A stretch of 64,000 nucleotides of DNA from Acidimicrobiia bacterium (GTDB taxonomy: Bacteria; Actinomycetota; Acidimicrobiia; Spongiisociales; JAENVV01): positions 22,549-86,548 of the forward strand of contig JBFGJH010000004.1 in the NCBI GenBank assembly GCA_041577335.1. The letters are read 5' to 3'. This document shows, in pieces, positions 198 to 39,955 of this stretch. The first letter of the stretch is position 1. Each line of letters starts with the position of its first letter. A program made the position numbers and the translations under genes. Under the pieces are notes generated by a model. It saw nothing but the letters and a program-made list of their open reading frames with translations. It ran no database searches and had not been told where the DNA came from.

Positions 198-3100
198 TCA
201 GCCTGGCACGATCACCGCGTGTGGGTGGGCGTAGACCGTATAGGCCAGCCAGGTCGCATCCCCGGCGTCGGCCGCGGCCTGGCGCGCTGCGATCACCGCG
301 TCGGTCATGCTCTTGCGTTTCAACAACTCTTCGTACAACGTCTCCGTGAAGGTCCGTGCCGGCCGGTCGCCGACCGACCAGAGCGACGACACGAACGCGC
401 CCGCCCCTCGATTGATGAATGCCGCTGCGAAGCCACCGATACCGGTGAGCTGATAGCCGGCTCTGCCAACCTGGCAAGCGTTCAAGACAACCAGCGGCCG
501 GTTGCCGTCGTCGCCGGTCAAGCTGGCGAACTCCGAAACCGTCGTAGCGTTGAGGTACTCAGGGATATAGCTGCCACTTTCAACCCGCCCCTGCATCATC
601 AAGCGCGCGTTGGTGACGTCCGATTGCTCGGCCGTACCGTGACCGGCAAAGTGCAACAGGTCGAAAGATCCGGGTTGCGAGAGCAGTTTGCGGACCTCGC
701 GAACCGTTGGCTCTACCGCCTGCGCACCGAACTGCTGCTGCATGTACCCGAGTTCGGCCTCGGCCTCGGGTAGCCGGAAGTTCGTGCCCTCCGGGTAGGA
801 CGGCACCACAGCCCGAACATGTTCGGGTCGAACACGTATCGCGTCGGGCGGCCAACTTCCATGAAGCCAGCGCACCAACCCCTTGGCTCCCAAGAAATGC
901 TCTTCGGCCCCGAGTGACCCACCCGGTTCCTTCAGATGAACGATCTCCCATGGGATGAAGGGCTCAGTGGACAGAACCTGAATGGCCTTGATCTGATCTC
1001 GGTGCTCCCACAGAGCAGCCCGGATCTCAGGAGGTACCAGCTCTTCGAACAGGGACGAGCCATACGCTCGGATGTCTTGCCGGAAATTGTCGGCATCTTG
1101 TCCGCTGCCGGTCCAGCGATCTTCGATCTCCTTGAAGAGGCGCTCCACATAGGTTTCCCGATCGACCTTCAGCGGCTGCGAGTCGGCGCGAATCAGGAGG
1201 CCTAGTTCTTCTGACTCGAAGTCGAACTCATAGACGACCTGTCCGTCGCTGTAGCGCTCGTTGATCCGCAGCTGGTGTAGTGGTGTCACAAGCGGCGCCG
1301 CCGGCGTCGCCACGCCCTCGCCTCGGATGGTGCCCGACTCGCTGACGGCCGTCTCCACAACGGTTGGCTCGAGCGCCAGGGTGAGGATCGGCACAACGCC
1401 CTGCCGAACCACAATGTCGACCTGTCCTGGTCCCACATCGGTGGCGCGAACGTCGAAGTAGAACTCCAATGAGCCCTCACCTGGTGGGAGCGTTTCCACC
1501 CGGCTTGGTCCCGCCGACTCGAAACCGCGCCGGCACATGACCTGCAAAACGAGTGGCGCCCCCAGCTCAACCTCGCCACTCCCGGACACGGTGACATCGC
1601 CGGCGATCTGGTCGGTGCCCACCCGCACCTCGATCGAGGTGACCTCGCCGAGAACGACCGAATCGTCCATCCCGGCTGCAAACGCCATCTCGGTGGTTTC
1701 GGCCGGGGCATCGGCCGGCGGTTCCACCACAATGGGAGCCGCTACCGCACCTCCGCCTCGGCGAGGCGAACTCGGGGGTGCGTTGACCGCCGCGGGCGGC
1801 GCGGCCGCCATTTCGGCGAACAATCCCCACCAGCGGCGCAACGCTTCGGCCGTGTTTGCCTGCTGGAAGTAGTTGGTGTGGAAAACCGTGCCGTTCGTAC
1901 CGAACTCGAACCTGTCCTTCAGGTATCCGGCCTCCATGCCGGTCATCGAGGACGTGTTGACCACGAGATCGTTGGACTCCCGCATCAGCCTGTCCATGAG
2001 CCCATCTTTCAATATGAACTTCATGCGCGAGGGCAGGCTGTCAGTTGACTCGTCGGCATCGAAGTTCGACGTGACGGCGAAGTAGTCGATGTCGGTTGGC
2101 AGAGGCTGATCAGGGTTTTCCGCATTGAGGTCGACCACGAAGGGGCCGTCTGGAAGCATCGCCGCCAGCCCAGGGATCGTGTCTTCGTCGATCAGCTCGG
2201 TCGCCAGGGCCTTCACAGCGGCCCCGATCAGCTTCAGGCCGCCGGCAATGAGCGCCGCAGGAGCGGCTGCTCCGGGAATCACGGCCCCCGCGCCGGTCGC
2301 ACCGGCGACGATGAGGTTGGTGTAGAGGTCGACCAGGCGGTGCCAATGCTCAGGGCTGGCGAGGAGGGTGCCTCGGTGCGTGGAACCCACGAACACAGCC
2401 CGCTCGACGGTGGCCGTCCAGCCTGACGTCGGGATGACCTTCTCGATCACGCTGCGCAGAACCAGACCACCCCGGCTATACCCGAGTGCATCGATGGTGA
2501 TGTCTTCGGCGCCGGGAATCGAACGAAGCACCGCCACGATGTCTCTGGCGTTCTCCAGCGGATCGACGCTGAGCGTTCGATGGTCGACACCAATCACCAG
2601 GTCGTAGCGATCATGCGCACCGGCCAAGAGGTCGCGGCCTTCCGGCGTGACCCACAGCGGCCCGAAGCTGTTGGACGTCGACGAGAAGGTGCCGTGCACA
2701 AACAGCAGCATCCTTCCGCCAGGAGGCATTGACAGGTCTCCGGGTTCGGCGTGCCGCCACGCAGACGGCCCGTCGGCCGACATCACGACGATGCCCTCCT
2801 CGACATCCTCGAAGTGATTGATGGCGGCCCGTCCCAATGGCGGAGCCACGTACCGGAGGACAAACGCCGTCGCCTTCGCGTAGATCAGATCGCTCACAAA
2901 CCCGCGGGTCGGGTCGATGTCGGGAGCAACCGGACTCAGTTCTATCGAGAATGTCCGTAGCCCACCCGCCGAACGGGTAGCCGCCGGCGCGGCGGAATCT
3001 TGGGGAAGGACCCATGAGTACACGCCATCCTGCTCGACCAGCACCACTGCGTCCTGTCCGGGAGGTGCTTCCAGGGAGATCTCAACCGGCTGGCTTCCGG

Positions 3101-3353
3101 CGAGTGCCGGGGCACTGCGCCGCCTGACACCAGACGGGGGCGTCTGTTCCACGGTTGGCGTCAGCACAACGCGGTCTACCACTTCGAAGTCTGCTCCTGC
3201 CAGAGCGACGCCGAGATCTGGGGCGCCACCTACATCGATCGGCACGGGGCCTGTGGGCAGGTCCACAGAGCCCCGGTCAGCCTCCTGCGTACTGACGCGT
3301 ACAGTCTCGGGCGCATCGATGTGAACCCCTGATGGCAAATCGGCACTCGCCAT
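198..3353 (-). CDS. Large multidomain protein (~1051 aa): N-terminal region, alpha/beta-hydrolase (lipase/esterase-like, GxSxG = GYSRGG) and C-terminal CHAT (caspase-like) protease domain
   Basis: Uninterrupted ORF 198..3434. The internal ATG at 3351-3353 is preceded by AAGGGGAG; an alternative GTG sits at 3434. Hydrolase motifs: LLFVHGTF, ALGYSRGGLV, NDLVVN, VFHTNYF. CHAT motifs near the C-terminus: LLHFAGHG (His) and VVLNACQVG (Cys), then LWSVGD. Codon usage has high GC3. Confidence 0.75.
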   Translation of the reverse strand: MASADLPSGVHIDAPETVRVSTQEADRGSVDLPTGPVPIDVGGAPDLGVALAGADFEVVDRVVLTPTVEQTPPSGVRRRSAPALAGSQPVEISLEAPPGQDAVVLVEQDGVYSWVLPQDSAAPAATRSAGGLRTFSIELSPVAPDIDPTRGFVSDLIYAKATAFVLRYVAPPLGRAAINHFEDVEEGIVVMSADGPSAWRHAEPGDLSMPPGGRMLLFVHGTFSSTSNSFGPLWVTPEGRDLLAGAHDRYDLVIGVDHRTLSVDPLENARDIVAVLRSIPGAEDITIDALGYSRGGLVLRSVIEKVIPTSGWTATVERAVFVGSTHRGTLLASPEHWHRLVDLYTNLIVAGATGAGAVIPGAAAPAALIAGGLKLIGAAVKALATELIDEDTIPGLAAMLPDGPFVVDLNAENPDQPLPTDIDYFAVTSNFDADESTDSLPSRMKFILKDGLMDRLMRESNDLVVNTSSMTGMEAGYLKDRFEFGTNGTVFHTNYFQQANTAEALRRWWGLFAEMAAAPPAAVNAPPSSPRRGGGAVAAPIVVEPPADAPAETTEMAFAAGMDDSVVLGEVTSIEVRVGTDQIAGDVTVSGSGEVELGAPLVLQVMCRRGFESAGPSRVETLPPGEGSLEFYFDVRATDVGPGQVDIVVRQGVVPILTLALEPTVVETAVSESGTIRGEGVATPAAPLVTPLHQLRINERYSDGQVVYEFDFESEELGLLIRADSQPLKVDRETYVERLFKEIEDRWTGSGQDADNFRQDIRAYGSSLFEELVPPEIRAALWEHRDQIKAIQVLSTEPFIPWEIVHLKEPGGSLGAEEHFLGAKGLVRWLHGSWPPDAIRVRPEHVRAVVPSYPEGTNFRLPEAEAELGYMQQQFGAQAVEPTVREVRKLLSQPGSFDLLHFAGHGTAEQSDVTNARLMMQGRVESGSYIPEYLNATTVSEFASLTGDDGNRPLVVLNACQVGRAGYQLTGIGGFAAAFINRGAGAFVSSLWSVGDRPARTFTETLYEELLKRKSMTDAVIAARQAAADAGDATWLAYTVYAHPHAVIVPG

Positions 3354-3502
3354 ATGCTCCCCTTTTCGAGTGGTCTTGAACCTACATGGCCATCCGCGCC
3401 GGCGGAGGGCATTGACCCGGTCCCAACCGCCCACTCAGCGCTGCAGGGACGGTCTGTTCAGGGCTATCGTTTGGTCAGATAGTCGCTGAGGGGAAGCTCA
3501 CC

Positions 3503-5233
3503 ATGACGACAACCGTAGGCAGCATCATTCATCCCGAGGGCCGGCACGTCATCGAGCCGACTACCCATGAGCAGATCGATGTCGCCATCGCCGCGCTTCA
3601 GGACAACAAGCAGCGTTGGCTGAATCTATCCATCGAGGACCGCATCTTTCACCTCGAGCAAACGATGGCAAACACCTTGGCAGTCTCCGAGCGATGGGTG
3701 GAAGCAGCTTGCGAAGCCAAGGGCATCGATTTCGATGCTGCGGTGGCCGGTGAGGAGTGGTCATCTGGCCCGTATCTCCTCATTCGCAATGCTCGTTTGC
3801 TGCGCGACTCATTGAGAGCGCTCGCAGATGGCCGCAAACCCGAACTGCCGGCGGTTTCGACGCGGCCGGACGGTCAGGTAGTCGCCAAGGTCTTTCCGAC
3901 CGACCTTTATGACCAGGCCGTCTTGAACGGGTTCGTGGGCGAAGTATGGATGCAGCCCGGTGTCACACCCGGCAATCTCGCCAGCACCCAGGCGGTGGCT
4001 TACGACAGCCTGCCTGAGGCCGCCGTCGGGCTGGTGCTCGGTGCCGGCAACATTTCCTCCATCGCGCCAATGGATGCACTCACGATGCTCTTCACCAAGA
4101 AACACGTGGCGCTCCTGAAACTCAACCCTGTCAATGAGTACCTCGGTCCCTTCATTGCTGAGGCCTTGGCTTCGCTCATCGAGGAAGGCTTCGTGCGGAT
4201 CATCTACGGCGGCGTCGAGGCCGGCCACTATGCCTGTGTCCACGATGGGGTAGATACGATTCACGTCACTGGGGCAGACAAGACCTACTACTCGATCCTA
4301 TTCGGCGACGGGGAGGAAGGCGAGGCTCGCCGTATGCGGGACGAGCCGCTCCTCACCAAGCCCGTGTCTGCCGAGTTGGGCAATGTCACTCCGGTGATCG
4401 TGGTGCCAGGTCCGTGGACCACAGCCGACATCGAGTATCAGGCGAAGAACCTCGCCGGGATGCTGACCCACAACGCCGGCTTCAACTGCATTGCGACGCG
4501 GGTGTTGCTCACTCACGGACACTGGAAGCATCGTGAAGCCCTCCTGTCAGCAATCGGGGACACGCTGACTGCAACTCCAACCCGTCCCGCCTACTACCCC
4601 GGAGCCGAAGAACGACTCGCCAGATTCGTCGAGGCGCATCCCGAAGCGCGCCGCTACGGCAACGGAGTCGCAGCCGACTGGACTTTCATCACCGATCTCG
4701 ACGAGAACGAAGAAGACCTGTGCTTTTCCGTAGAGCCCTTCGCAGGGATCTTCGCCGAAGCTCCTTTGGATGCTCCCCGGTCGGTGCCGGAATTCATCGA
4801 GCAGGCCGTCGAGTTCTGCAACAGCAAGCTGTGGGGAACACTGGCCGCCACCTTGATTGTGCACCCCGAATCGCTGAAGGACCCAGCCATCGCCGACGCC
4901 GTCGAAGATGCCATCGCCGGGCTCCGGTATGGAACGGTCACCGTGAATGCCTGGTCCGGCATCGGGTACCTGTTGGTTTCGACCACCTGGGGGGCATACC
5001 CCGGCCACACCCGATCGGAAATCGGCTCCGGCCTCGGCGTTGTGCACAACACCTATCTGTTCGATCAGGCCCAGAAGTCAGTGGTGCGAGCGCCATTCAA
5101 GTCGTACCCCAAACCGTTGTGGTTCGCCGAAAACAAACAAACTCACAATGTGGCCCGATATCTCACCCAGTTCGAAGCGGATCCGCAGCCTTGGAAGCTG
5201 CTTCCTGTGTTCGGGGCTGCCCTCGCTGGATGA
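3503..5233 (+). CDS. Aldehyde dehydrogenase family protein
   Basis: ATG at 3503 is preceded by GAGGGGAAG. ALDH-like motifs: ELGNVTPVIVVPGPW and NAGFNCIATRVLL (catalytic Cys region). 576 aa. Divergent from the CHAT gene. Confidence 0.75.
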   Translation: MTTTVGSIIHPEGRHVIEPTTHEQIDVAIAALQDNKQRWLNLSIEDRIFHLEQTMANTLAVSERWVEAACEAKGIDFDAAVAGEEWSSGPYLLIRNARLLRDSLRALADGRKPELPAVSTRPDGQVVAKVFPTDLYDQAVLNGFVGEVWMQPGVTPGNLASTQAVAYDSLPEAAVGLVLGAGNISSIAPMDALTMLFTKKHVALLKLNPVNEYLGPFIAEALASLIEEGFVRIIYGGVEAGHYACVHDGVDTIHVTGADKTYYSILFGDGEEGEARRMRDEPLLTKPVSAELGNVTPVIVVPGPWTTADIEYQAKNLAGMLTHNAGFNCIATRVLLTHGHWKHREALLSAIGDTLTATPTRPAYYPGAEERLARFVEAHPEARRYGNGVAADWTFITDLDENEEDLCFSVEPFAGIFAEAPLDAPRSVPEFIEQAVEFCNSKLWGTLAATLIVHPESLKDPAIADAVEDAIAGLRYGTVTVNAWSGIGYLLVSTTWGAYPGHTRSEIGSGLGVVHNTYLFDQAQKSVVRAPFKSYPKPLWFAENKQTHNVARYLTQFEADPQPWKLLPVFGAALAG

Positions 5234-5270: not shown

Positions 5271-6119
5271 ATGACGATGAAACACGGTGTGGTGATCTTC
5301 CCAACCGATAAGGCCATCCAGCCCGTCGAGCTGGCACAGGCCGCCGAGGACCGGGGCTTTGAGTCACTCTGGTTCCCGGAGCACTCGCACATTCCTGCGT
5401 CGCGTCGAACGCCATGGGGTGGCCGTAAGGACGCAGACGACCTGCCAGAAGAGTATTGGCGCTTGCACGACCAGTTCGTCGCCTTGTCTGCGGCCGCTGC
5501 GGTCACGTCCACGATCCGGCTCGGAACTGGCATCACGCTGGTGGTGCAGCGCGACCCATTCTGGTTGGCCAAGCAGGTGGCGTCGTTGGATGTCATCTCC
5601 AACGGCCGGTTCATCTTCGGTGTGGGTTTTGGGTGGAATGTCGAGGAAGCCGAAGACCATGGGATCAACTTCAAGAAACGCCATCGGATCGTTGACGAGA
5701 TGTTGAGCGCCATGAAGCTGATCTGGACAGAGGACGAGCCTGAGTTCCACGGCGAATTCGTGGACTTCGACCGTCTGTGGGCCTGGCCCAAGCCGGTCCA
5801 GCAGCCGCACCCCCCGATCGTGTTTGGGACCGGTACCGGTCCCTTGGGGACCAAAGCGGTGATTGCTCATGCCGATGGCTGGATGCCCCTGCGGTTGTCC
5901 CGCAGCTACGAAGAGGAGATCGCCGCCATGCGCAAGGCATTGGCGGCGGCGGGCCGCGACCCAGAAGAGCTCGAGATCACGATCTTCTACGCCAAGCCTG
6001 ACGAGGATCTGCTCTCCGAATTCCGCAAGCTCGGCGTCGCCAGAGTCATCTTCTCGCTCCCGCCGGCCGGTCGTGAGGTTGTGATCCCCAAGCTCGACGA
6101 GTTGGCCCGGCTCAGCTGA
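5271..6119 (+). CDS. LLM class (luciferase-like) F420-dependent oxidoreductase
   Basis: MKHGVVIFPTDKAIQPVELAQAAEDRGFESLWFPEHSHIP is a typical TIM-barrel LLM N-terminus. 282 aa. RBS TAGGGGATGA before the ATG. Confidence 0.85.
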   Translation: MTMKHGVVIFPTDKAIQPVELAQAAEDRGFESLWFPEHSHIPASRRTPWGGRKDADDLPEEYWRLHDQFVALSAAAAVTSTIRLGTGITLVVQRDPFWLAKQVASLDVISNGRFIFGVGFGWNVEEAEDHGINFKKRHRIVDEMLSAMKLIWTEDEPEFHGEFVDFDRLWAWPKPVQQPHPPIVFGTGTGPLGTKAVIAHADGWMPLRLSRSYEEEIAAMRKALAAAGRDPEELEITIFYAKPDEDLLSEFRKLGVARVIFSLPPAGREVVIPKLDELARLS

Positions 6120-7605
6120 CCGATTCGGTCGCGAATCGAGTAATCAGAGGCGCGAACCGGTCGACGATCGCCGGGCTGAGGGCGGGCGGGGAGATCATCG
6201 CCTCGCTGACGCCCACCTCCACATATCGGCGAAAGTGACCGACCAGATCGTCGACGGTGCCGCCATTGACCTCTTGGGCGAACTCCTCGGCGGTCGTGTT
6301 GGGGGGGCGCAGCTCTTCGAGGAGGGCGCCCAGGTCGTCGCGGTCAGCAGCCGCCAGGGCGGAGCCGAGGTGGGTAAGGGCGATCTCGCCCGGATCCCTC
6401 CCAACTGCTGCACAGTGATTCTCCAATACCTTTCGTTTGGCACTGACTCGGTCGGGGTCCCCCATGAAGTTGGCGGCATCGGCGTGGCGGGCGACCAGGA
6501 GGAGGGTGCGCTGCTCACCGGACCCGCCCACGAGGAGCGGGATCTTCTCTTGGAGCGGGCGCGGATAGTTCATTGCCTCGAGCATCGAGATCGTGGCACC
6601 GTCAAAGGGCTTGCCGCCGGGACCCCACACCAGCGGTAGCGCCTGGAGCGCATCCTCGAGCCCGTCGAGGCGGACCTTGGCTGGGGGGAACTCGTAGCCG
6701 AACGCCTTGGCCTCCTGCTCGAACCATCCGGCCCCGAGCCCGCACCGGGCCCGGCCCCCTGACAGCACGTCGAGGGTGGCGATGATCTTGCCGAGGTAGC
6801 CGATATTGCGAAACCCGACGTTGGTCACCAGCACGCCCAGCTTGATCGTCGTCGTGATCCCGGCCAAGTACGCCAGCGTTGTGTAGCTCTCCAGCAGCGG
6901 GTCCCACGCCCGACCGACCTGGGGGATCTGGCGCAGGTGGTCCATCACCCACAGCGTTGTGAAACCAGCTTGTTCTGCGGCACCCGCAACCTCACCGAGG
7001 CGTACTGCGATCTCCTCGTCGGGCCAGTCGAACCGCGCCACGACGAGACCGAATTCCAACTGGGCGGGGGTGGATGTCTGGCGCTCCGCCGCTTCGGCCG
7101 CAGCCGCCGAGGCGGCCGGGCCACGGGCGACCTCGGAGGGCGCCGTTGCGATTCGATCGAATCCGTCGTCGGGAAGTTCGCCAACCACCTCGCGGTGCCG
7201 TCGGAGCTGCGCATCGAGCACCCGGACGGGTACCGGATCGCGGCGGCGCCGGTTGCGCTCTCGAGACACTTCAGCGGGTGCGTCCAGCACCACGGCCACG
7301 GCCTCCAAACCGGCTTCTTTGGCCAGTTGTGCCCATCGGCGACGGGCACCCCGGTCGAATCCGGTCGTGTCGACGACGGTGGTCAATCCCCGTCCGAGCC
7401 GAAGTACGACAATCCGCTCCAGCAGTTCGAACGCATCCACCGAAGCCTCTTGGTCCCAGTCGCCTCGGCCCACCATGCCGCGCAGAGCGTCGGAGGAGAC
7501 CACCGCCCCGGGGAAATGCGAGTGGGCCCAGGTGGACTTGCCCGACCCGGCCGGGCCCACGAGCACCACCAGCGCCGGGCGTTCGAATCGGAGCGGCTCG
7601 CTCAC
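6112..7605 (-). CDS. Fusion protein: N-terminal AAA_33-type P-loop kinase/ATPase domain plus C-terminal LLM class F420-dependent oxidoreductase domain
   Basis: P-loop LVVLVGPAGSGKST followed by VVSSDALRG (AAA_33-like). C-terminal LLM motifs: TLWVMDHL, DVLSGGRARCGLGAGW. The likely start is GTG at 7605..7603, forming a GTGA overlap with the stop of the upstream SDR gene. A TTG at 7617 is the alternative. Confidence 0.75.
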   Translation of the reverse strand: MSEPLRFERPALVVLVGPAGSGKSTWAHSHFPGAVVSSDALRGMVGRGDWDQEASVDAFELLERIVVLRLGRGLTTVVDTTGFDRGARRRWAQLAKEAGLEAVAVVLDAPAEVSRERNRRRRDPVPVRVLDAQLRRHREVVGELPDDGFDRIATAPSEVARGPAASAAAAEAAERQTSTPAQLEFGLVVARFDWPDEEIAVRLGEVAGAAEQAGFTTLWVMDHLRQIPQVGRAWDPLLESYTTLAYLAGITTTIKLGVLVTNVGFRNIGYLGKIIATLDVLSGGRARCGLGAGWFEQEAKAFGYEFPPAKVRLDGLEDALQALPLVWGPGGKPFDGATISMLEAMNYPRPLQEKIPLLVGGSGEQRTLLLVARHADAANFMGDPDRVSAKRKVLENHCAAVGRDPGEIALTHLGSALAAADRDDLGALLEELRPPNTTAEEFAQEVNGGTVDDLVGHFRRYVEVGVSEAMISPPALSPAIVDRFAPLITRFATESVS

Positions 7606-8366
7606 TGCGCCGTCCAACCCCCGTCCACCGGGAGCACGGTGCCGTTGACCATGCCCGAGCCGGGTGAGGCGAGGTAGACGACGGCGGACGCAACATCGTC
7701 GATGGTGGCCACCCGCCCTGCAGGAATCCGTTCGACCACCGCCTTCAGATAGTCCGGGTCGTCGAGGCGTTCAGCCGTTCCCGGGGTGTAGACAAACGTC
7801 GGGGCGACTGCATTGACCGTGACGCCGTGTGGAGCCCACTCCAGCGCCAGAACCTTGATCATCGCGTTGATGCCCCCCTTCGACGTCGTATAGACAGCGT
7901 GGTCACGGATCCCTACGATGCCGGCCTGGGAGCTCATGACCACGATCCGTCCATATCCGTTGGGCACCATATGGCGGCCGGCCGCCTGACAAGTGAAGAA
8001 GGCGCCTTTGAGATTCACGGCCATCATCCGGTCCCAATCGTCCTCGGTGACCTCCAACGCCGGCTGATTGTCGCCGAGACCGGCGTTGACCACGCAGATA
8101 TCGAGGCCGCCGAGTGAAGCGACGGCCCGGTCGATCGCCCCACCGGTGGCGTCCACGTTGGTCACATCGAAAACCACAGCCACAACCTCGTGTCCGTTCG
8201 CGGCGAGCTCCGCTTCCAGCGATCGAAGGAGGCCCTCGTCGCGCCCGCAGACCGCTACTGAGGCGCCTGCCTCGGCCAGAGCCAGGGCCAGGCCGCGACC
8301 GATACCGCGAGTTGCGCCGGTGACGAGGGCTCGCGAACCCTCTAGCAGTTGAGCAGTTGCCATCAT
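7602..8366 (-). CDS. SDR family NAD(P)-dependent oxidoreductase (short-chain dehydrogenase)
   Basis: TGATRGIGRGLALALAEAGASV (TGxxxGxG) and YTTSKGGINAMIK (YxxxK). 254 aa. Start MM at 8366. Confidence 0.9.
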   Translation of the reverse strand: MMATAQLLEGSRALVTGATRGIGRGLALALAEAGASVAVCGRDEGLLRSLEAELAANGHEVVAVVFDVTNVDATGGAIDRAVASLGGLDICVVNAGLGDNQPALEVTEDDWDRMMAVNLKGAFFTCQAAGRHMVPNGYGRIVVMSSQAGIVGIRDHAVYTTSKGGINAMIKVLALEWAPHGVTVNAVAPTFVYTPGTAERLDDPDYLKAVVERIPAGRVATIDDVASAVVYLASPGSGMVNGTVLPVDGGWTAQ

Positions 8367-9600: not shown

Positions 9601-10119
9601 GTGGGTACCCTTGGAGCTGTGACGGTCCTGCGAATTCAACGAGGCGACATCACCACTCTCAGCGTGGACGCCATCGTGAACGCCGCCAACTCGTCGCTGC
9701 TGGGAGGGGGAGGCGTCGATGGGGCCATCCACCGGGCCGCCGGCCCGGGTTTGCTCGAGGAGTGCCGCCGCTTGGGAGGCTGCCCGACGGGCGAGGCCCG
9801 CATCACCGGCGGATACGACCTGCCCGCCACATTCGTCATCCATACCGTCGGTCCGGCATGGCAGGGAGGAGCAGCAGGAGAGCCCGGTCTGCTCGCCTCT
9901 TGTTATCGCAACAGTCTCAGGCTGGCGGTCGAGAACGGAGCCACAACGATTGCATTCCCTGCCATCAGCTGCGGCGTGTACGGGTACCCGCCCGGCCGAG
10001 CGGCCGTGGTCGCCATCGAAGAGGTGCGGAGGTTTCCCCGACTCGCAGAGCTGGAAACGGTGCTTTTCGTGGTCTTCGGGGACGATGTGGCGGCCGCGTA
10101 TGAGGCCGCACTCAGCTAG
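9601..10119 (+). CDS. Macro domain protein (O-acetyl-ADP-ribose deacetylase / ADP-ribose-binding, YmdB-like)
   Basis: [34 protein letters not shown] is the classic macro-domain motif. GTG start at 9601; an alternative GTG at 9619. Confidence 0.8.
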
Positions 10120-21119: not shown

Positions 21120-21992
21120 CTACAGGCTCGCCAGTCGAGGCACCACGGAGGCGGCTCGCTCAGCGAAGCCGACCGGATCGTCACCGGACGGCATCACCAT
21201 CACCCCCTCGACCCCGACCTTGGCGAAATCCGCCATCTCCTGGACGAACGCATCGGTGTCCCCCCGCGCCAGCGTTTGCCCGACATACAGGAGCGTCTTG
21301 TGGATGGCGTCGTAGTCGGTGCCAAGCCGATCGCAGTGTTGGCGCAGCACACCAAGCTTGTGAGCAACCGCCTCAGGGCTGGGTTCGATCAGATTCGAGG
21401 CGTTGGCGTATTGCGCCACGAGCCGAAGCGTCTTCTTCTCACCTCCGCCTCCGATCATGATCGGCGGATGGGGCTGAGTGACCGCCGGTGGCTGATTGAG
21501 CGTCTCGGCAAGTTGATAGTGCACGCCCTCGAATGAGCCGGTGTTGCCAGACCACATCTGCAGGCAGATCTGGAGCGTTTCCTCGAGTCGCTCGAATCGC
21601 TCAGCGGTCGAGGGAAACGGAACTCCCAAGCCGAGGTGTTCGCGCTCATACCAGCCCGCACCGATACCCAGAATGGCCCGACCACCCGAAAGGACATCGA
21701 GGGTCGTTATCGTCTTGGCCAGTAGACCCGGATAACGGTAGGTCACGCCACCGACCAACAAACCCACCTGAATCTGCGAAGTCACCCCGGCAACGTAGCC
21801 AAGCGTCGTGTAGCCCTCCAGCATCGGCTCCTCCGCAGGAATGTACTGGTCCAACTGGAAGAAATGGTCCATCACGTGCAGGGAGCGCATCCCGCCTTGG
21901 TCGGCCACCCGCGCTACTTCGGCGAGCGTCCCGGCGGTGTCCTGCGGCGTGTTCGGCCAACTGAAATTGGCTACGTGGAGTCCAATATCCAT
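21120..21992 (-). CDS. LLM class F420-dependent oxidoreductase
   Basis: MDIGLHVANFSWPN...SLHVMDHFFQ...TSQIQVGLLVGGVTYRYPGLLAKTITTLDVLSGGRAILGIGAGWYE. ATG at 21992. Confidence 0.85.
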   Translation of the reverse strand: MDIGLHVANFSWPNTPQDTAGTLAEVARVADQGGMRSLHVMDHFFQLDQYIPAEEPMLEGYTTLGYVAGVTSQIQVGLLVGGVTYRYPGLLAKTITTLDVLSGGRAILGIGAGWYEREHLGLGVPFPSTAERFERLEETLQICLQMWSGNTGSFEGVHYQLAETLNQPPAVTQPHPPIMIGGGGEKKTLRLVAQYANASNLIEPSPEAVAHKLGVLRQHCDRLGTDYDAIHKTLLYVGQTLARGDTDAFVQEMADFAKVGVEGVMVMPSGDDPVGFAERAASVVPRLASL

Positions 21993-22041
21993 ACGGGTGC
22001 TCCTGGTGCGGCGGCAGACAAGGGTACCCAGCGTTGCCGAA

Positions 22042-22512
22042 TCAGCGAAGTCCGATCTTGCGGCCGACCTGACGGGGCCGCTTGATGAAGGAATGGGCGG
22101 ACACGACTTCGCTGATCCGCTCACTCACGTCAGAGGGAAAGGGAGCGCTGCGTCGATGCTCGAGGTCCACGTTGATGGATACCAGTTCGTTGGTGGCAAC
22201 GAGCTTGTCGTCGCCCTTGTACATCTGATGGAAATAGTGCATCCGGCGTCCATCAAAGTCCAGCATCATGGTGTCGATGGTGCCGGTATCGCCCTCGAAC
22301 ATCTCCGCCAAATAATCGGTGCGCGAGGCGATGGAGAACACCGACATGTTGCGCTCGGCGATGTAATCCTGTCCCAGCCCCAGCCAGTCGTACATTGGAT
22401 CGGTCGCCTCGAAGTCGAACGCAACGCCGTAGAACCCCATGTTCATGTGGCCGTTGTAGTCCACCCAGTCGGCGGGGACGGTGAACGTCTGCTGTGGGAT
22501 GGGCGCAGGCAT
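22042..22512 (-). CDS. Acyl-CoA thioesterase (hotdog-fold, YbgC/4HBT-like)
   Basis: VPADWVDYNGHMNMGFYGVAFDFEATDPMYDWLGLG is a hotdog thioesterase N-terminal signature. 156 aa. Confidence 0.7.
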   Translation of the reverse strand: MPAPIPQQTFTVPADWVDYNGHMNMGFYGVAFDFEATDPMYDWLGLGQDYIAERNMSVFSIASRTDYLAEMFEGDTGTIDTMMLDFDGRRMHYFHQMYKGDDKLVATNELVSINVDLEHRRSAPFPSDVSERISEVVSAHSFIKRPRQVGRKIGLR

Positions 22513-22604
22513 GCTCGCACCAAGGTAGCGCCGGCCTGCCTCCTGCGCTCAAACGACCGACGTTCCTACAGTGGGTTGGCCGTGGGGACCCAGGAGGAGA
22601 CACC

Positions 22605-32833: not shown

Positions 32834-33259
32834 TCAGCGCACGGTGCCGTAGAACGAACTCGGTTCCAGTCGAAGCACGAGACGCTGTTCCGCAACCATC
32901 GCCGCGTAGAACTCGTCAGGGTCCGGATGCGGATTCGAAGCGATGGCGTTGTAGACATCGAGCAGCTCTCGCCCAACCGGGTCGCCGGCCTCCGTTGTCA
33001 CCGACGACACCTGCACGGTCCCGTCGACGACCACGTACTGCCAGAAATCGTCGCTGGACACGTGGAGAGCGGCCCGTGGATCGCGGCGAAGGTTGGCTGT
33101 CTTGGCACGAGACTCGGTTACCGAGATGAGCGCAGCTTCGCCGTTCCAGTGATAGACGACATTCGAGGACTGTGGCCGCCCATCCGAGCGGAGAGTCACG
33201 AGCACTGCCTTGGTGTGCGCGCCGAGAAATGGAGAAGCCTTCGCGATATTCACGGTCAC
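32834..33259 (-). CDS. PPOX class F420-dependent enzyme / pyridoxamine 5'-phosphate oxidase family
   Basis: HTKAVLVTLRSDGRPQSSNVVYHWNGEAALISVTESRAKTANLRRDPRAALHV is a split-barrel PNPOx-like signature. GTG start at 33259. Confidence 0.7.
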   Translation of the reverse strand: MTVNIAKASPFLGAHTKAVLVTLRSDGRPQSSNVVYHWNGEAALISVTESRAKTANLRRDPRAALHVSSDDFWQYVVVDGTVQVSSVTTEAGDPVGRELLDVYNAIASNPHPDPDEFYAAMVAEQRLVLRLEPSSFYGTVR

Positions 33260-36735: not shown

Positions 36736-39042
36736 TCACAGCCGGTGCAGCACCGCCTCGAAGTTACGAACGTACCAGGGCGAGCCCGGCCGATAGCGCT
36801 CAGAAACCTCGAGGTTCAAGGCAGCACTATGCCACCACAACGCGATGATGGCGGTGACACCAGCCGCCCATTGCAGGTCGTGGGCAGCTTCAAGCAGCTG
36901 CCGTTCCCGCTCGTCCCATCGCTCGTCGGCTTCGATGAGCTCGAGCACGACCTGCCCCGTTTCGCGACCTTCTAATGCCACCCTTGTCGTCACGAGAAGA
37001 GATACGAGGTCGAAGTCCACGGGTCCGGCGACGTCGGATGCATCCCAGTCGATGACACCGACCAAATGGCCGTCAGCTTCGTCGACGAGGAGATTTCCGA
37101 GCCAGAAGTCGCCGTGGATCATGGCGCTCGGAACGGGTGTCAGTTGCTGTCCGAGCCGGTCAGCCATCGCTCGAGCAGCGTCGATCGTGGCATCGGCTGC
37201 TCCTCCGGCTCGCAGCTGATCGAGGATGATGGCGGTCCTCCGATTCAGCCAATCGACTGGGCTGACGCCTGGATCGACGGTGCGACGGGTCAGCGTCGCC
37301 GCCCAGTCCGCTGCTTCGCCAATCGTGGTTTCGAGAACCCCGGGCTTGGCGAGGAGCCGGGTCGCCGGAAGCCCACCGAGATGGCGTTCCATCACGAAGA
37401 CTCGACCGTCCAGGTATCCATGTCCGAGTACGGGCGGGATCGTTGATCGAAGGGGGTCCAGCCGGCCATTCTCGCTCGCCCGTTCCAGAGCGGTCGTCGA
37501 ACGCTGGATAGACGTTTCTCCTTTGCCAGAGCGCCCCGTCTTGATGATCGCGCCGGGCCGACCGCCAGGATCACCCACGGTCACTGCCCGCACATCCGTG
37601 AGGCTCGACAGGCTCCGCAGCGGAACCCAGGAAGGGTGGCCAAGTGTGTCGGCGAGGCTGTCGAGCACGGCTCGCGCGTAGGCGCGATCCGATCGGTGGC
37701 CACGCAGCTGCATGGCTCGATCGCGCAGTGCACCGAGCGACTCGATGAAGCGAGGACTCAGGTTGGCCAGCAGCAGCGACCGCAAGCCCGTAACGAGAAG
37801 TACTGCCGCCACCACCGACTGGCCGACGAGCCAGGCAACACCAACGCCGGTGATCCCCATCGTGCCGAGGAGGAACCACGACAGGCCGAGCACTACCACC
37901 GCCAGGACCGACATGAGCACCACGAGCCGCTTCATGCGACGTTCGGCGCGGAGCAACGCCGTGTAGATGGTTGTCACCACCGTCGGAAGCGACGCAATGG
38001 CGAGTAGTCGAAGGAGTGACGCGCCCTCAGTCGAGTACTCCTGCCCGAACAGGCGCAAGACCAACGGCGCGGCGATCACCAACACGGCGACCGCCGGGAT
38101 CATGAGGAGCGTTGTCTGGCGCAGCGTCCGGTACGTGAGAACGGCGGCGGCGCTGGGATCGGCAGTCGTTTCGGTGAGCATTGACATACCGAAGTTGCGC
38201 CCTATGAGGTACAGGACGTACGCAACGCTCCACGCCAGGTAGAAATAGGCCGTCTCCGCCGCACTCGTTCGTTCCAGCACGATTACCGGAAGCAGGCTGA
38301 CAGTGCCAGTCCATACCAGGGAAGCTGCATAGTCACCGGCCACGAAGGCCCGCAGGATGCGGCCGGTCACATGCTCAGGATCGTCGCGCGTGGCACGTAC
38401 GTGTTTGGGAACGAGCCGTAGAAACATCAGCGCATTCACCACGACCACGACCGGCACCACCGGGACCGTCCACGCCACGAAGACACCCGAATCTGTCAGG
38501 GCATCAGCGACGAAAATCAGCACAGCTATCTTGGCGATCGCGAAGATGAGGTTCTCCACAGTTACCCAGTGAGCAGCCCGCAGGCCGGTGAGGGCGCCAT
38601 CCTGCAGCACGAAGATTGTCCAGGCCCCTACCGCAACCGGGAACCAGACGATCATCCCGGCGGACTCGCGTACGAAGCCAAGGGTTGGCGCCCAGATATC
38701 CACGCCGGCGACAAACAGTGCGCCCGCTGCCAAACCCGCTGATCCGGCAACCAGGTACGACCCAACGATGATCCGCGGCGTGGCATGACCGCCGCGCGGC
38801 ACGAAACGGTTCAGACCATTGAAGAGATTGAACGACGACAGATTGGCAAGGAACACCATCGTCGCGATCGCCGCGGATCCGACACCGATTTCGGCAGGCT
38901 CGAATAGCGCAGTCGCCAGAGTCCAAAATGCGAGGCCGAGCACCGACGACAGAACAGAGCTGGCTGCCAGAAAGTACCCGTTGCGATAGAGCGGATCGGA
39001 CCAGTGCCCCGCCAGCTTGGTCCGCCAGGTCACGCCGGCCAT
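36736..39042 (-). CDS. Fusion: MOP-superfamily polysaccharide flippase/exporter (Wzx-like, ~12-14 TM) plus C-terminal aminoglycoside-phosphotransferase-like (APH/ChoK) kinase domain
   Basis: The N-terminal ~430 aa are hydrophobic with Wzx-like topology. C-terminal MIHGDFWLGNLLVDEADGHLVGVIDWDASDVAGPVDFDL matches Brenner's motif HGDxxxxN plus the DWD activation loop. ATG at 39042 avoids overlap with the GH16 gene; the ORF extends to 39153. Confidence 0.75.
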   Translation of the reverse strand: MAGVTWRTKLAGHWSDPLYRNGYFLAASSVLSSVLGLAFWTLATALFEPAEIGVGSAAIATMVFLANLSSFNLFNGLNRFVPRGGHATPRIIVGSYLVAGSAGLAAGALFVAGVDIWAPTLGFVRESAGMIVWFPVAVGAWTIFVLQDGALTGLRAAHWVTVENLIFAIAKIAVLIFVADALTDSGVFVAWTVPVVPVVVVVNALMFLRLVPKHVRATRDDPEHVTGRILRAFVAGDYAASLVWTGTVSLLPVIVLERTSAAETAYFYLAWSVAYVLYLIGRNFGMSMLTETTADPSAAAVLTYRTLRQTTLLMIPAVAVLVIAAPLVLRLFGQEYSTEGASLLRLLAIASLPTVVTTIYTALLRAERRMKRLVVLMSVLAVVVLGLSWFLLGTMGITGVGVAWLVGQSVVAAVLLVTGLRSLLLANLSPRFIESLGALRDRAMQLRGHRSDRAYARAVLDSLADTLGHPSWVPLRSLSSLTDVRAVTVGDPGGRPGAIIKTGRSGKGETSIQRSTTALERASENGRLDPLRSTIPPVLGHGYLDGRVFVMERHLGGLPATRLLAKPGVLETTIGEAADWAATLTRRTVDPGVSPVDWLNRRTAIILDQLRAGGAADATIDAARAMADRLGQQLTPVPSAMIHGDFWLGNLLVDEADGHLVGVIDWDASDVAGPVDFDLVSLLVTTRVALEGRETGQVVLELIEADERWDERERQLLEAAHDLQWAAGVTAIIALWWHSAALNLEVSERYRPGSPWYVRNFEAVLHRL

Positions 39043-39058
39043 GGGTGGGGTCGGGCGG

Positions 39059-39955
39059 TCAGCCACTCGGCGTTGCTTCCTGCCACACCCTGATGTAATC
39101 GACCGCGAACTCGGCGGGGAAGTCGGTGCCATCGGTAGGCCCCGCATATTCACCGCCGACCGCCAGATTGGCGATCAGGTACATGGGCTCTGCGGGTAGG
39201 TGATCGGCCTCGTGAAAGCTCCACACTTGGCGACCATCGACGAACCAGATCACTGCGTCCTCAGACCATTCGACGGCGAAGGTGTGCCATCCGTCGGCGA
39301 AGTTAGGGCCCGGCCAGCGATTGCCCTCGCTGCGGCTCTCTCCGGTCTCGTTGCGCCAATGAATGTGCGATCGGAATAGATGGGGATCCTGGCCCAGGAA
39401 TTCGAGGATGTCGATCTCCGGCTTGGAGTCGTGAGTTATCGGTAGCAGCCAGAACGCCGGCCAGAGCCCGGCACCGGCCGGGATGCGTGCGCGCATCTCC
39501 ACGTAGCCGAATTGGAATGCATAGCCAGGATCAGGTTCCTTGTCGTTCGTCGGGCGACCACTGCTGACCATCCCGCTGACGTACGGGAAGACTGCGTCGT
39601 CGAACCCCACGACGGGGCCGTGATCAGCAGTCAGGTGGAGGACCCCTTCGCTGACGGTGACTTGTTCGGGGACGTACCATTGCTGCTCATTGGTGGACAG
39701 GTTCGTGCACCCGTTGTCATCCCACCAGAAACAGGTTGCCCACACTTCTCGGTCGAGAATCTCTCCATCGAATTCGTCGCTGAACCGTAGGTCCCAGCGC
39801 AGCGCGTCTTGGCCCAAAGGCACAACGGGCTTCTCGCCACGGCGCAGCTCAAACGTCGGCCAGCCGAAGTTCTTCTCTGGGTATCTCAGTGGGAGCAACG
39901 CCAGCCCGAGCAGGAACAAGGCGGTGAGGGTGACCGCCACCGCCAACCTATGCAT
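39059..39955 (-). CDS. Secreted glycoside hydrolase family 16 (beta-glucanase/laminarinase-like)
   Basis: Signal peptide MHRLAVAVTLTALFLLGLALLP. GH16 catalytic motif EIDILEF (ExDxxE) and GLWPAFWLL. ATG at 39955. Confidence 0.8.
   Translation of the reverse strand: MHRLAVAVTLTALFLLGLALLPLRYPEKNFGWPTFELRRGEKPVVPLGQDALRWDLRFSDEFDGEILDREVWATCFWWDDNGCTNLSTNEQQWYVPEQVTVSEGVLHLTADHGPVVGFDDAVFPYVSGMVSSGRPTNDKEPDPGYAFQFGYVEMRARIPAGAGLWPAFWLLPITHDSKPEIDILEFLGQDPHLFRSHIHWRNETGESRSEGNRWPGPNFADGWHTFAVEWSEDAVIWFVDGRQVWSFHEADHLPAEPMYLIANLAVGGEYAGPTDGTDFPAEFAVDYIRVWQEATPSG

Follow-up and report, generated by a model that had tools for sequence, protein, structure and literature searches.

A predicted polynucleotide kinase-type domain fused to a predicted F420-dependent luciferase-like oxidoreductase in Actinomycetota

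What would a protein do that joins a kinase and a redox enzyme in one polypeptide? This question is raised by a gene of an Acidimicrobiia bacterium (assembly GCA_041577335.1, contig JBFGJH010000004.1), in which a P-loop kinase domain precedes a luciferase-like monooxygenase (LLM) domain and whose start codon overlaps the stop codon of a short-chain dehydrogenase/reductase (SDR) gene. The gene was analyzed within a stretch of 64,000 nucleotides (positions 22,549 to 86,548 of the forward strand of the contig), referred to here as the window, and all positions given below are those of the window unless a locus is named. An initial annotation of this DNA had regarded the kinase, the LLM domain and the SDR as a possible small tailoring pathway. 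We found that the fusion is a new combination of two domains of known kinds and that the window copy is an ordinary member of an uncharacterized family.

The fusion gene

On the minus strand, the open reading frame runs uninterrupted over 6112..7617 when counted from the first TTG codon (501 amino acids) and over 6112..7605 when counted from a GTG codon (497 amino acids). The GTG start is the one used for the identical 497-amino-acid protein in public gene calls (on a 106-kb contig), and the N-termini of the homologs line up with it. The gene and its junction with the SDR gene are as follows, where L081 and L001 are the loci of two close relatives.

6112-7605, minus strand: fusion coding sequence, 497 amino acids from GTG, stop codon at 6112-6114, identical to a public 497-amino-acid product
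7617, minus strand: alternative TTG start, adding 4 amino acids
7602-7605, minus strand: GTGA overlap of the fusion start and the SDR stop, the same 4 nucleotides in L081, kept beside an SDR remnant in L001

The overlap is exact, because the SDR stop codon TGA occupies 7604-7602 and the GTG of the fusion 7605-7603 (minus strand GGT TGG ACG GCG CAG TGA). No stop codon or frameshift, the kind of interruption that the initial annotation had named as speaking against a fusion, was found between the kinase and LLM domains in the window sequence. What it had said of the domains, of their in-frame fusion and of the GTGA overlap was borne out by the single open reading frame, the Pfam matches and the junction sequence. 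The GC content by codon position was 0.75/0.50/0.80 (GC3 0.80), similar to that of the adjoining genes. Since at least 120 full-length homologs have the same two-domain layout, the fusion is a real gene and not a chance open reading frame. Scanning the locus for promoters and terminators gave nothing informative.

The N-terminal kinase domain

Judged from profile matches and conserved residues, the N-terminal 160 amino acids form a P-loop kinase that belongs to the polynucleotide 5'-kinase clade. The domain and its motifs were located as follows.

7126-7605, minus strand: kinase domain of the polynucleotide 5'-kinase clade, amino acids 1-160
7531-7557, minus strand: Walker A motif (P-loop) GPAGSGKST, amino acids 17-25, with G17, G22 and K23 invariant (121/121) and S/T24 in 121/121
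7480-7497, minus strand: phosphoacceptor motif SSDALR, amino acids 37-42, from the alignment to 4gp6, with D39 and R42 (121/121 each) corresponding to Asp38 and Arg41 of Clostridium thermocellum Pnk (CthPnk)
7243-7263, minus strand: lid segment RERNRRR, amino acids 115-121, with R117 (CthPnk Arg116, 120/121), N118 (121/121) and R121 (CthPnk Arg120, 119/121)

AAA_33 (PF13671) matched amino acids 16-142 above its gathering threshold (E 5.7e-28, 98.4 bits vs a cut-off of 27; Pfam coordinates of the fusion are counted from the TTG start). The kinase domain alone matched the kinase module of the NCBIfam model TIGR04075, that of bacterial polynucleotide kinase-phosphatase (Pnkp), with 121 bits (E 4e-35, model positions 6-153 of 851). 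Support from kinase-family models, the lack of which the initial annotation had held to be fatal to its reading, is thus strong. The next NCBIfam models were PSTK (34 bits) and the eukaryotic PNK-3'-phosphatase (28 bits); the matches were confined to polynucleotide kinase and tRNA-linked kinase models, with no sugar kinase model among them. Zeta_toxin (PF06414) reached 16.9 bits in the Pfam scan of the fusion, under its cut-off of 22.3, and the earlier label 'zeta-toxin-like' has to be replaced by that of a 5'-OH kinase of the Pnkp/T4 Pnk type, as indicated by the NCBIfam and PDB matches. At 117-121 bits and with model positions 6-154 matched, the equivalog cut-off of TIGR04075 (750 bits) was not reached, and the full model needs a kinase, a metallophosphoesterase and a ligase-like domain. 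Lacking the last two and scoring far below that cut-off, the fusion is not a Pnkp.

The closest structural relative of the domain is a polynucleotide kinase. The kinase domain of CthPnk (4gp6/4jst/4mde) was the top PDB match, with E 1.8e-22 for the single protein and 3.4e-38 for the family profile, and was stronger than any PDB match of the LLM half; the family profile also matched T4 Pnk (3.9e-7) and mammalian PNKP (5e-6). When the kinase domain alone was searched against 1.84 billion representatives, 49 proteins were found at E <=1e-30 and 1243 at E <=1e-10. With fusions and their fragments set aside, genuine Pnkp proteins that carry the metallophosphatase motif (41-46% identity) were among the closest relatives, as was at least one true stand-alone kinase (P0242, 175 amino acids).

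CthPnk positions, with residue roles from PMC3902929, were mapped to the fusion via the PDB alignments and tallied in 121 homologs.

Lys21, P-loop catalytic lysine: K23, 121/121
Ser22, Mg-binding: S/T24, 121/121
Asp38, general base: D39, 121/121
Arg41, essential, acceptor site: R42, 121/121
Phe58, stacks on the second base: F59, 121/121
Asp78: D79, 121/121
Arg116, stacks on the NTP (nucleoside triphosphate) base: R117, 120/121
Arg120, contacts the gamma-phosphate: R121, 119/121
Gln51, first-base pocket: Q52, 82/121
Val129, first-base pocket: V129, 85/121
His133, first-base pocket: Q133, a conserved substitution, 117/121

All residues essential in the C. thermocellum enzyme (Lys21, Asp38, Arg41) and the lid arginines R116/R120 are therefore kept in the aligned fusion sequences. 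This conservation of catalytic and acceptor residues predicts that the kinase is intact and that its acceptor site is of the nucleotide type. A threonine or serine is found at position 80 in 119/121 homologs, but it aligns one position ahead of CthPnk T80, the first-phosphodiester anchor. The D-T spacing of the fusion presumably resembles that of T4 Pnk, in which we take T86 to be the first-phosphodiester anchor.

Lactate kinase (CofB) and FO kinase were also considered as identities for the domain and dropped, the acceptor site being of the nucleotide type. Bacterial F420 synthesis uses phosphoenolpyruvate, which also told against both ideas.

The LLM domain and its cofactor

The C-terminal half is an LLM domain both by its TIM-barrel fold and by Bac_luciferase (PF00296), which matched amino acids 206-437 above threshold (E 2.3e-35, 122.9 bits vs a cut-off of 27.9). 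Three features were distinguished in it.

6115-7020, minus strand: LLM TIM-barrel domain of the TIGR03560 (Rv1855c) family, amino acids 196-497
6904-6948, minus strand: family signature VMDHLRQIPQVGRAW, amino acids 220-234, with D222, H223, Q226 and W234 invariant and H223 aligned with FGD1 His40 (hhalign)
6226-6333, minus strand: about 29 extra residues within amino acids 425-460, missing from the stand-alone TIGR03560 paralog and conserved among the fusions (BLASTP)

The TIGR03560 model was passed marginally, by 2 bits (233.4 vs a cut-off of 231.4), and RefSeq labels the homologs as TIGR03560 F420 enzymes. The assignment of this family to F420 is based on phylogenetic profiling. The LLM domain of the fusion is 37% identical to the stand-alone TIGR03560 protein encoded at 21120..22124 (295.9 bits). 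In a profile alignment with FGD1, the sequence of which differed in one residue from 3b4y when checked against it, His40 corresponds to H223, and the fusion has Ile227 in place of Trp44 and an invariant tryptophan, Trp294, in place of the catalytic Glu109. TIGR03557 scored 46.1 bits on the fusion vs a cut-off of 210.4, and the FGD equivalog model was not among the listed hits. The LLM half is therefore not an FGD-type dehydrogenase. Seven invariant arginines and lysines (R266, K273, R285, R312, R349, K390 and R403) would be able to hold a phosphate.

Structures of F420-bound Mer were the best Foldseek matches. The fold does not tell F420 enzymes from FMN (flavin mononucleotide) enzymes. A sequence signature separating the two was sought in PMC6279831, and none there was usable. 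Three points make the use of F420 by the LLM half plausible: its marginal membership in TIGR03560, the taxonomic range of the fusion, and the presence in the window of three more predicted F420 enzymes. The taxa that carry the fusion are taxa known to make F420. Genes of F420 biosynthesis (fbiC/cofGH, cofD, cofE, cofC) were not found among the 54 window genes scanned with Pfam, a window of 64 kb being too small to decide this for the genome.

Distribution and predicted structure of the fusion

The domain-architecture search that the initial annotation had suggested came out in favor of the fusion, which joins the two domains in each of the best 120 protein hits and likewise in each of the best 80 genome loci. 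All 120 proteins combine PF13671 with PF00296, at 51-97% identity and lengths of 482-553 amino acids; the 80 loci were all covered over the full length. Relatives of the fusion are encoded by at least 590 species (590 of the 600 listed pattern matches, with one genome per species). Going by record titles, the best 80 loci comprise 37 of the class Acidimicrobiia and 9 of Kribbella, the others belonging to Pseudonocardia, Actinophytocola, Antrihabitans, Solirubrobacterales, Nitriliruptorales, Streptosporangiaceae and Dormiibacter, together with a few bins labeled otherwise. The fusion thus occurs mainly in Acidimicrobiia, Kribbella and Pseudonocardiaceae and is almost confined to Actinomycetota plus Dormibacterota.

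The sole interrupted copy among the best 80 loci lies in a metagenome-assembled genome (MAG) of Acidimicrobiaceae (L063, 7009-8481), with an in-frame stop at the conserved tryptophan of an 'FDW' motif. It was rejected as a natural split of the fusion, since the stop falls inside the first LLM strand and not between the domains, which indicates a pseudogene or an error of sequence or assembly. A seeming kinase-SGL fusion (P0172, locus L088; 311 amino acids) was also set aside: it lies on a 1.8-kb metagenome contig, its first LLM strand jumps into the middle of an SMP-30/gluconolactonase domain, and it is probably an assembly chimera. Besides it, just two SGL neighbors were seen, too few for a link to lactonases.

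The domains are connected by a structured linker.

7021-7125, minus strand: interdomain linker, amino acids 161-195; conserved motif RQ(x3)P(x2)L(x)F, its RQ lying in a helix (167-178); Q176 in 114/121 homologs; AlphaFold2 predicted local distance difference test (pLDDT) >90

Using an alignment of 121 sequences, AlphaFold2 gave a mean pLDDT of 95.5 and a predicted template modeling score (pTM) of 0.91 for the protein, with the 35-residue linker ordered. On these values the two domains are predicted to form a single rigid body. No solved structure covering both halves was found, the query-normalized TM-score in Foldseek being <=0.54. Taken from its sequences, the fusion is an old, self-contained unit that appears to have evolved together.

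The SDR gene and the gene neighborhood

The gene upstream of the fusion encodes a classical SDR.

7602-8366, minus strand: classical SDR of 254 amino acids (adh_short_C2, E 1.1e-63), a lineage-specific upstream operon neighbor

No NCBIfam model matched this SDR at its cut-off. Apart from the window, L081 (80% identity) was the one locus with a co-oriented SDR gene immediately upstream of the fusion; this locus also keeps the overlap of 4 nucleotides, the Macro and PspC genes, the convergent LLM gene, the aldehyde-dehydrogenase-like gene and the gene of the CHAT protein. L001 (64% identity) likewise retains the Macro, convergent LLM, aldehyde-dehydrogenase-like and CHAT genes, and of the SDR there is a 3' remnant at 7879-8003 of that locus. 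This remnant consists of the last 42 codons or so (...IPAGRVATIDDVAGAMVYLASPAAGKVTGAVLPGDGGWTAQ*), is 80% identical to the window SDR, abuts the intact fusion and ends in the overlapping GTGA stop. As read from these sequences, the SDR was deleted in the L001 lineage with the junction preserved. The GTGA overlap is accordingly best described as local operon organization, which would permit translational coupling and is no evidence of a shared pathway.

Beyond these close relatives, a tblastn search with the window neighbors detected an SDR relative within 8 kb of the fusion in 4/80 loci. When the four genes flanking the fusion on either side in 74 loci were clustered de novo, the largest cluster comprised 11 loci, all of one Kribbella lineage. 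Neither approach revealed a neighbor conserved across lineages. The Pfam-annotated neighborhoods of Microlunatus, Tenggerimyces, a Dormibacterota MAG and one further MAG have nothing in common, the upstream and downstream genes are co-oriented with the fusion in less than half of the loci, and no biosynthetic-cluster genes were found near the fusion in the window. The proposal that the SDR performs a third pathway step therefore finds no support in these comparisons, and the 'small tailoring pathway' gives way to a solitary, widespread gene of a housekeeping style outside any biosynthetic cluster. Membership in a defense system was considered and rejected as well, PADLOC yielding a weak generic oxidoreductase match alone.

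Two kinds of RNA-related neighbors were seen. In six Kribbella loci (L055, L057, L071, L073, L075 and L079), the gene next upstream of the fusion, in divergent orientation, encodes a LigT-type 2H phosphoesterase, and RNase J is encoded near the fusion in seven loci of one Acidimicrobiia lineage. Because each represents a single evolutionary event, they are a hint only. The LigT-type family is that of RNA 2',3'-cyclic phosphodiesterases; together with a Pnk-type kinase it would supply both end-healing activities, in this one lineage.

Proposed function and alternative explanations

The reading that we favor, with a confidence of about one half, is that the fusion is a single rigid bifunctional enzyme in which a Pnk-type kinase and an F420-dependent LLM act on one nucleoside-containing substrate. 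The kinase would phosphorylate the 5'-OH of an acceptor of the nucleoside-3'-phosphate type, with the gamma-phosphate coming from an NTP; either the 5' end of a nucleic acid or a short molecule resembling a nucleotide could serve as this acceptor. The LLM domain would carry out a hydride transfer dependent on F420/F420H2, and the two reactions would follow one another on the same nucleoside-containing substrate. Action in sequence is probable because the domains are always fused and are modeled as one body. The SDR would merely be co-transcribed, and possibly translationally coupled, in this lineage.

Several observations weigh against this interpretation. Sequential action on one substrate is deduced from the fusion and from nothing else. 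The contacts of CthPnk to nucleotides 2-4 are partly kept: Gln83 is replaced by Asp or Asn, Tyr128 is variable, and the lid arginine Arg123 is mostly proline (Pro 77/121, Arg 32/121, other 12/121). Because conservation does not extend to the contacts with the second phosphodiester and those further on, the data do not clearly favor a long polyanionic strand as the acceptor and are equally compatible with a short nucleotide-like molecule. The LigT-type and RNase J neighbors are lineage-specific and could be there by chance.

The alternatives differ in what they make of the fusion and of its surroundings. In the model of the initial annotation, phosphorylation, F420- or flavin-dependent redox and the SDR would tailor one small metabolite in three steps. 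The overlap of SDR and fusion conserved in L081 and the presence of a second LLM gene and an aldehyde-dehydrogenase-like gene alongside fit this model, but we regard it as very improbable, given the intact fusion beside a truncated SDR in L001, the scarcity of SDR relatives (4/80 loci), a largest neighbor cluster (11/74) that is specific to Kribbella, four distant neighborhoods that share nothing and the absence of biosynthetic-cluster genes nearby. A kinase for a sugar or another small metabolite could alternatively feed an F420-reducing dehydrogenase resembling FGD, with phosphorylation followed by an oxidation that yields F420H2. Known F420-dependent LLM dehydrogenases do act on sugar 6-phosphates (PMC6279831), many invariant arginines and lysines of the LLM domain could hold a phosphate, and His40 of FGD1 is kept as H223. 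The replacement of Trp44 by Ile227 and of Glu109 by Trp294, the low TIGR03557 score (46 vs 210 bits) and a kinase whose matches are to polynucleotide and tRNA-linked kinases, with sugar kinase models absent, make this explanation distinctly unlikely.

It is also conceivable, if rather doubtful, that the two domains have no common substrate, the kinase-like part being an NTP-sensing or regulatory module or the fusion serving for co-expression only. This would agree with the lack of a conserved partner or pathway context and with the existence of both a stand-alone kinase (P0242) and stand-alone TIGR03560 LLMs such as that at 21120..22124. However, the invariant D39 and R42 lie on the acceptor side and go beyond the residues that bind NTP, the arrangement of the domains is confidently predicted, and the fusion is kept in the best 80 loci, the stop of L063 not being at the domain junction. 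Whichever of these applies, the LLM domain might be an FMN-dependent monooxygenase or oxidoreductase and not an F420 enzyme; this is a separate question. We think the FMN option rather unlikely as well, considering that the TIGR03560 cut-off is reached, that the range is almost confined to Actinomycetota plus Dormibacterota, that the top Foldseek matches are F420-bound Mer and that predicted F420 enzymes are dense in the window.

A bolder reading would be a redox-coupled healing of nucleic-acid ends, in which the F420H2-dependent LLM repairs an oxidized or modified 5' terminus and the kinase then makes a ligatable 5'-phosphate. For example, a 5'-aldehyde arising from C5' hydrogen abstraction would be reduced to a 5'-OH and then phosphorylated. 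This speculation draws on the kinase clade, the invariant acceptor residues, the obligate rigid fusion and the RNA-processing neighbors in two lineages, and we consider it a long shot.

Other genes of the window

Three further genes of the window encode predicted F420-dependent enzymes that reach their NCBIfam cut-offs.

5271-6119, plus strand: TIGR03619 F420-type LLM, convergent to the fusion (263 bits vs a cut-off of 166.9), syntenic just in the close relatives L081 and L001
21120-22124, minus strand: stand-alone TIGR03560 LLM, 295.9 bits, over the cut-off
32834-33259, minus strand: TIGR03618 PPOX-class protein, 119 bits, over the cut-off

The 3' ends of the fusion and of the TIGR03619 LLM gene overlap by 8 nucleotides (6112-6119), as they do by 8 nucleotides in L081 and by 4 in L001, so that there is no room for a terminator between the two genes.

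Further genes of the window were noted. At 3503-5233 (plus strand), 37 nucleotides upstream of the TIGR03619 LLM gene, an aldehyde-dehydrogenase-like protein of an atypical length (576 amino acids) is encoded, with a weak and partial Aldedh match (38 bits, amino acids 216-341); the gene is conserved in L081 and L001. The gene at 198-3434 (minus strand), syntenic in both relatives, encodes a protein of 1078 amino acids with DUF7362, DUF7379, DUF7363 and a C-terminal CHAT protease domain, and gave weak PADLOC matches to SAVED_CHAT and BovA. Three genes from the fusion, at 9601-10119 (plus strand), lies a gene for a stand-alone Macro domain protein (E 6.5e-47), which is likewise syntenic in L081 and L001; a link to ADP-ribose or RNA metabolism is possible, and the gene has no wider conservation. 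At 36736-39153 (minus strand), a protein of 805 amino acids has an APH phosphotransferase domain at amino acids 522-751, its N-terminal 520 amino acids being without a Pfam match.

Significance and comparison with known systems

Full-text literature searches found no paper on a kinase-LLM fusion, on TIGR03560 or on the function of Rv1855c, and no characterized member of TIGR03560. RefSeq and JGI catalog the protein under a name that refers to its LLM half only and ignores the kinase. A Pnk-type kinase joined rigidly to a predicted F420 enzyme, and kept in this form with no operon partner by hundreds of species of actinobacteria, implies a defined chemistry in two steps that would lie off the present map of F420 biology and of end-healing enzymes. 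The protein is a tractable target, being one soluble polypeptide that is confidently modeled and occurs in culturable organisms, among them Kribbella and Antrihabitans, and discovery of its substrate would give a function to a large uncharacterized branch of F420 LLMs. If end healing proved to be its role, it would be the first tie of coenzyme F420 to RNA or DNA repair. The architecture would surprise specialists in F420 enzymology or in RNA/DNA end healing, while no long-standing question depends on the fusion yet.

On the kinase side, bacterial Pnkp (that of C. thermocellum; 4gp6, 4jst, 4mde) shares its kinase module with the fusion. In contrast to Pnkp, the fusion has no metallophosphoesterase and ligase-like domains and is joined to a redox enzyme instead; no Hen1 or ligase partner was found for it. 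The kinase domains of T4 polynucleotide kinase and mammalian PNKP belong to the same clade and have the same Asp-x-x-Arg acceptor motif. In T4 Pnk we take the acceptor-site Asp/Arg pair to be D35/R38, and the likeness of the motifs presumably extends to the D-T pair after strand 3.

On the LLM side, the fusion reaches the curated cut-off of the TIGR03560 (Rv1855c) family, which is predicted to be F420-dependent, and differs from the stand-alone members in its approximately 29 extra residues and its N-terminal kinase. The F420 LLMs of known function (Mer, FGD1, Adf, fHMAD/FGD2 and KvPepI) are 17-25% identical to the LLM domain of the fusion and none has a fused kinase, and the catalytic Glu109 and Trp44 of FGD1 are not kept in the fusion.

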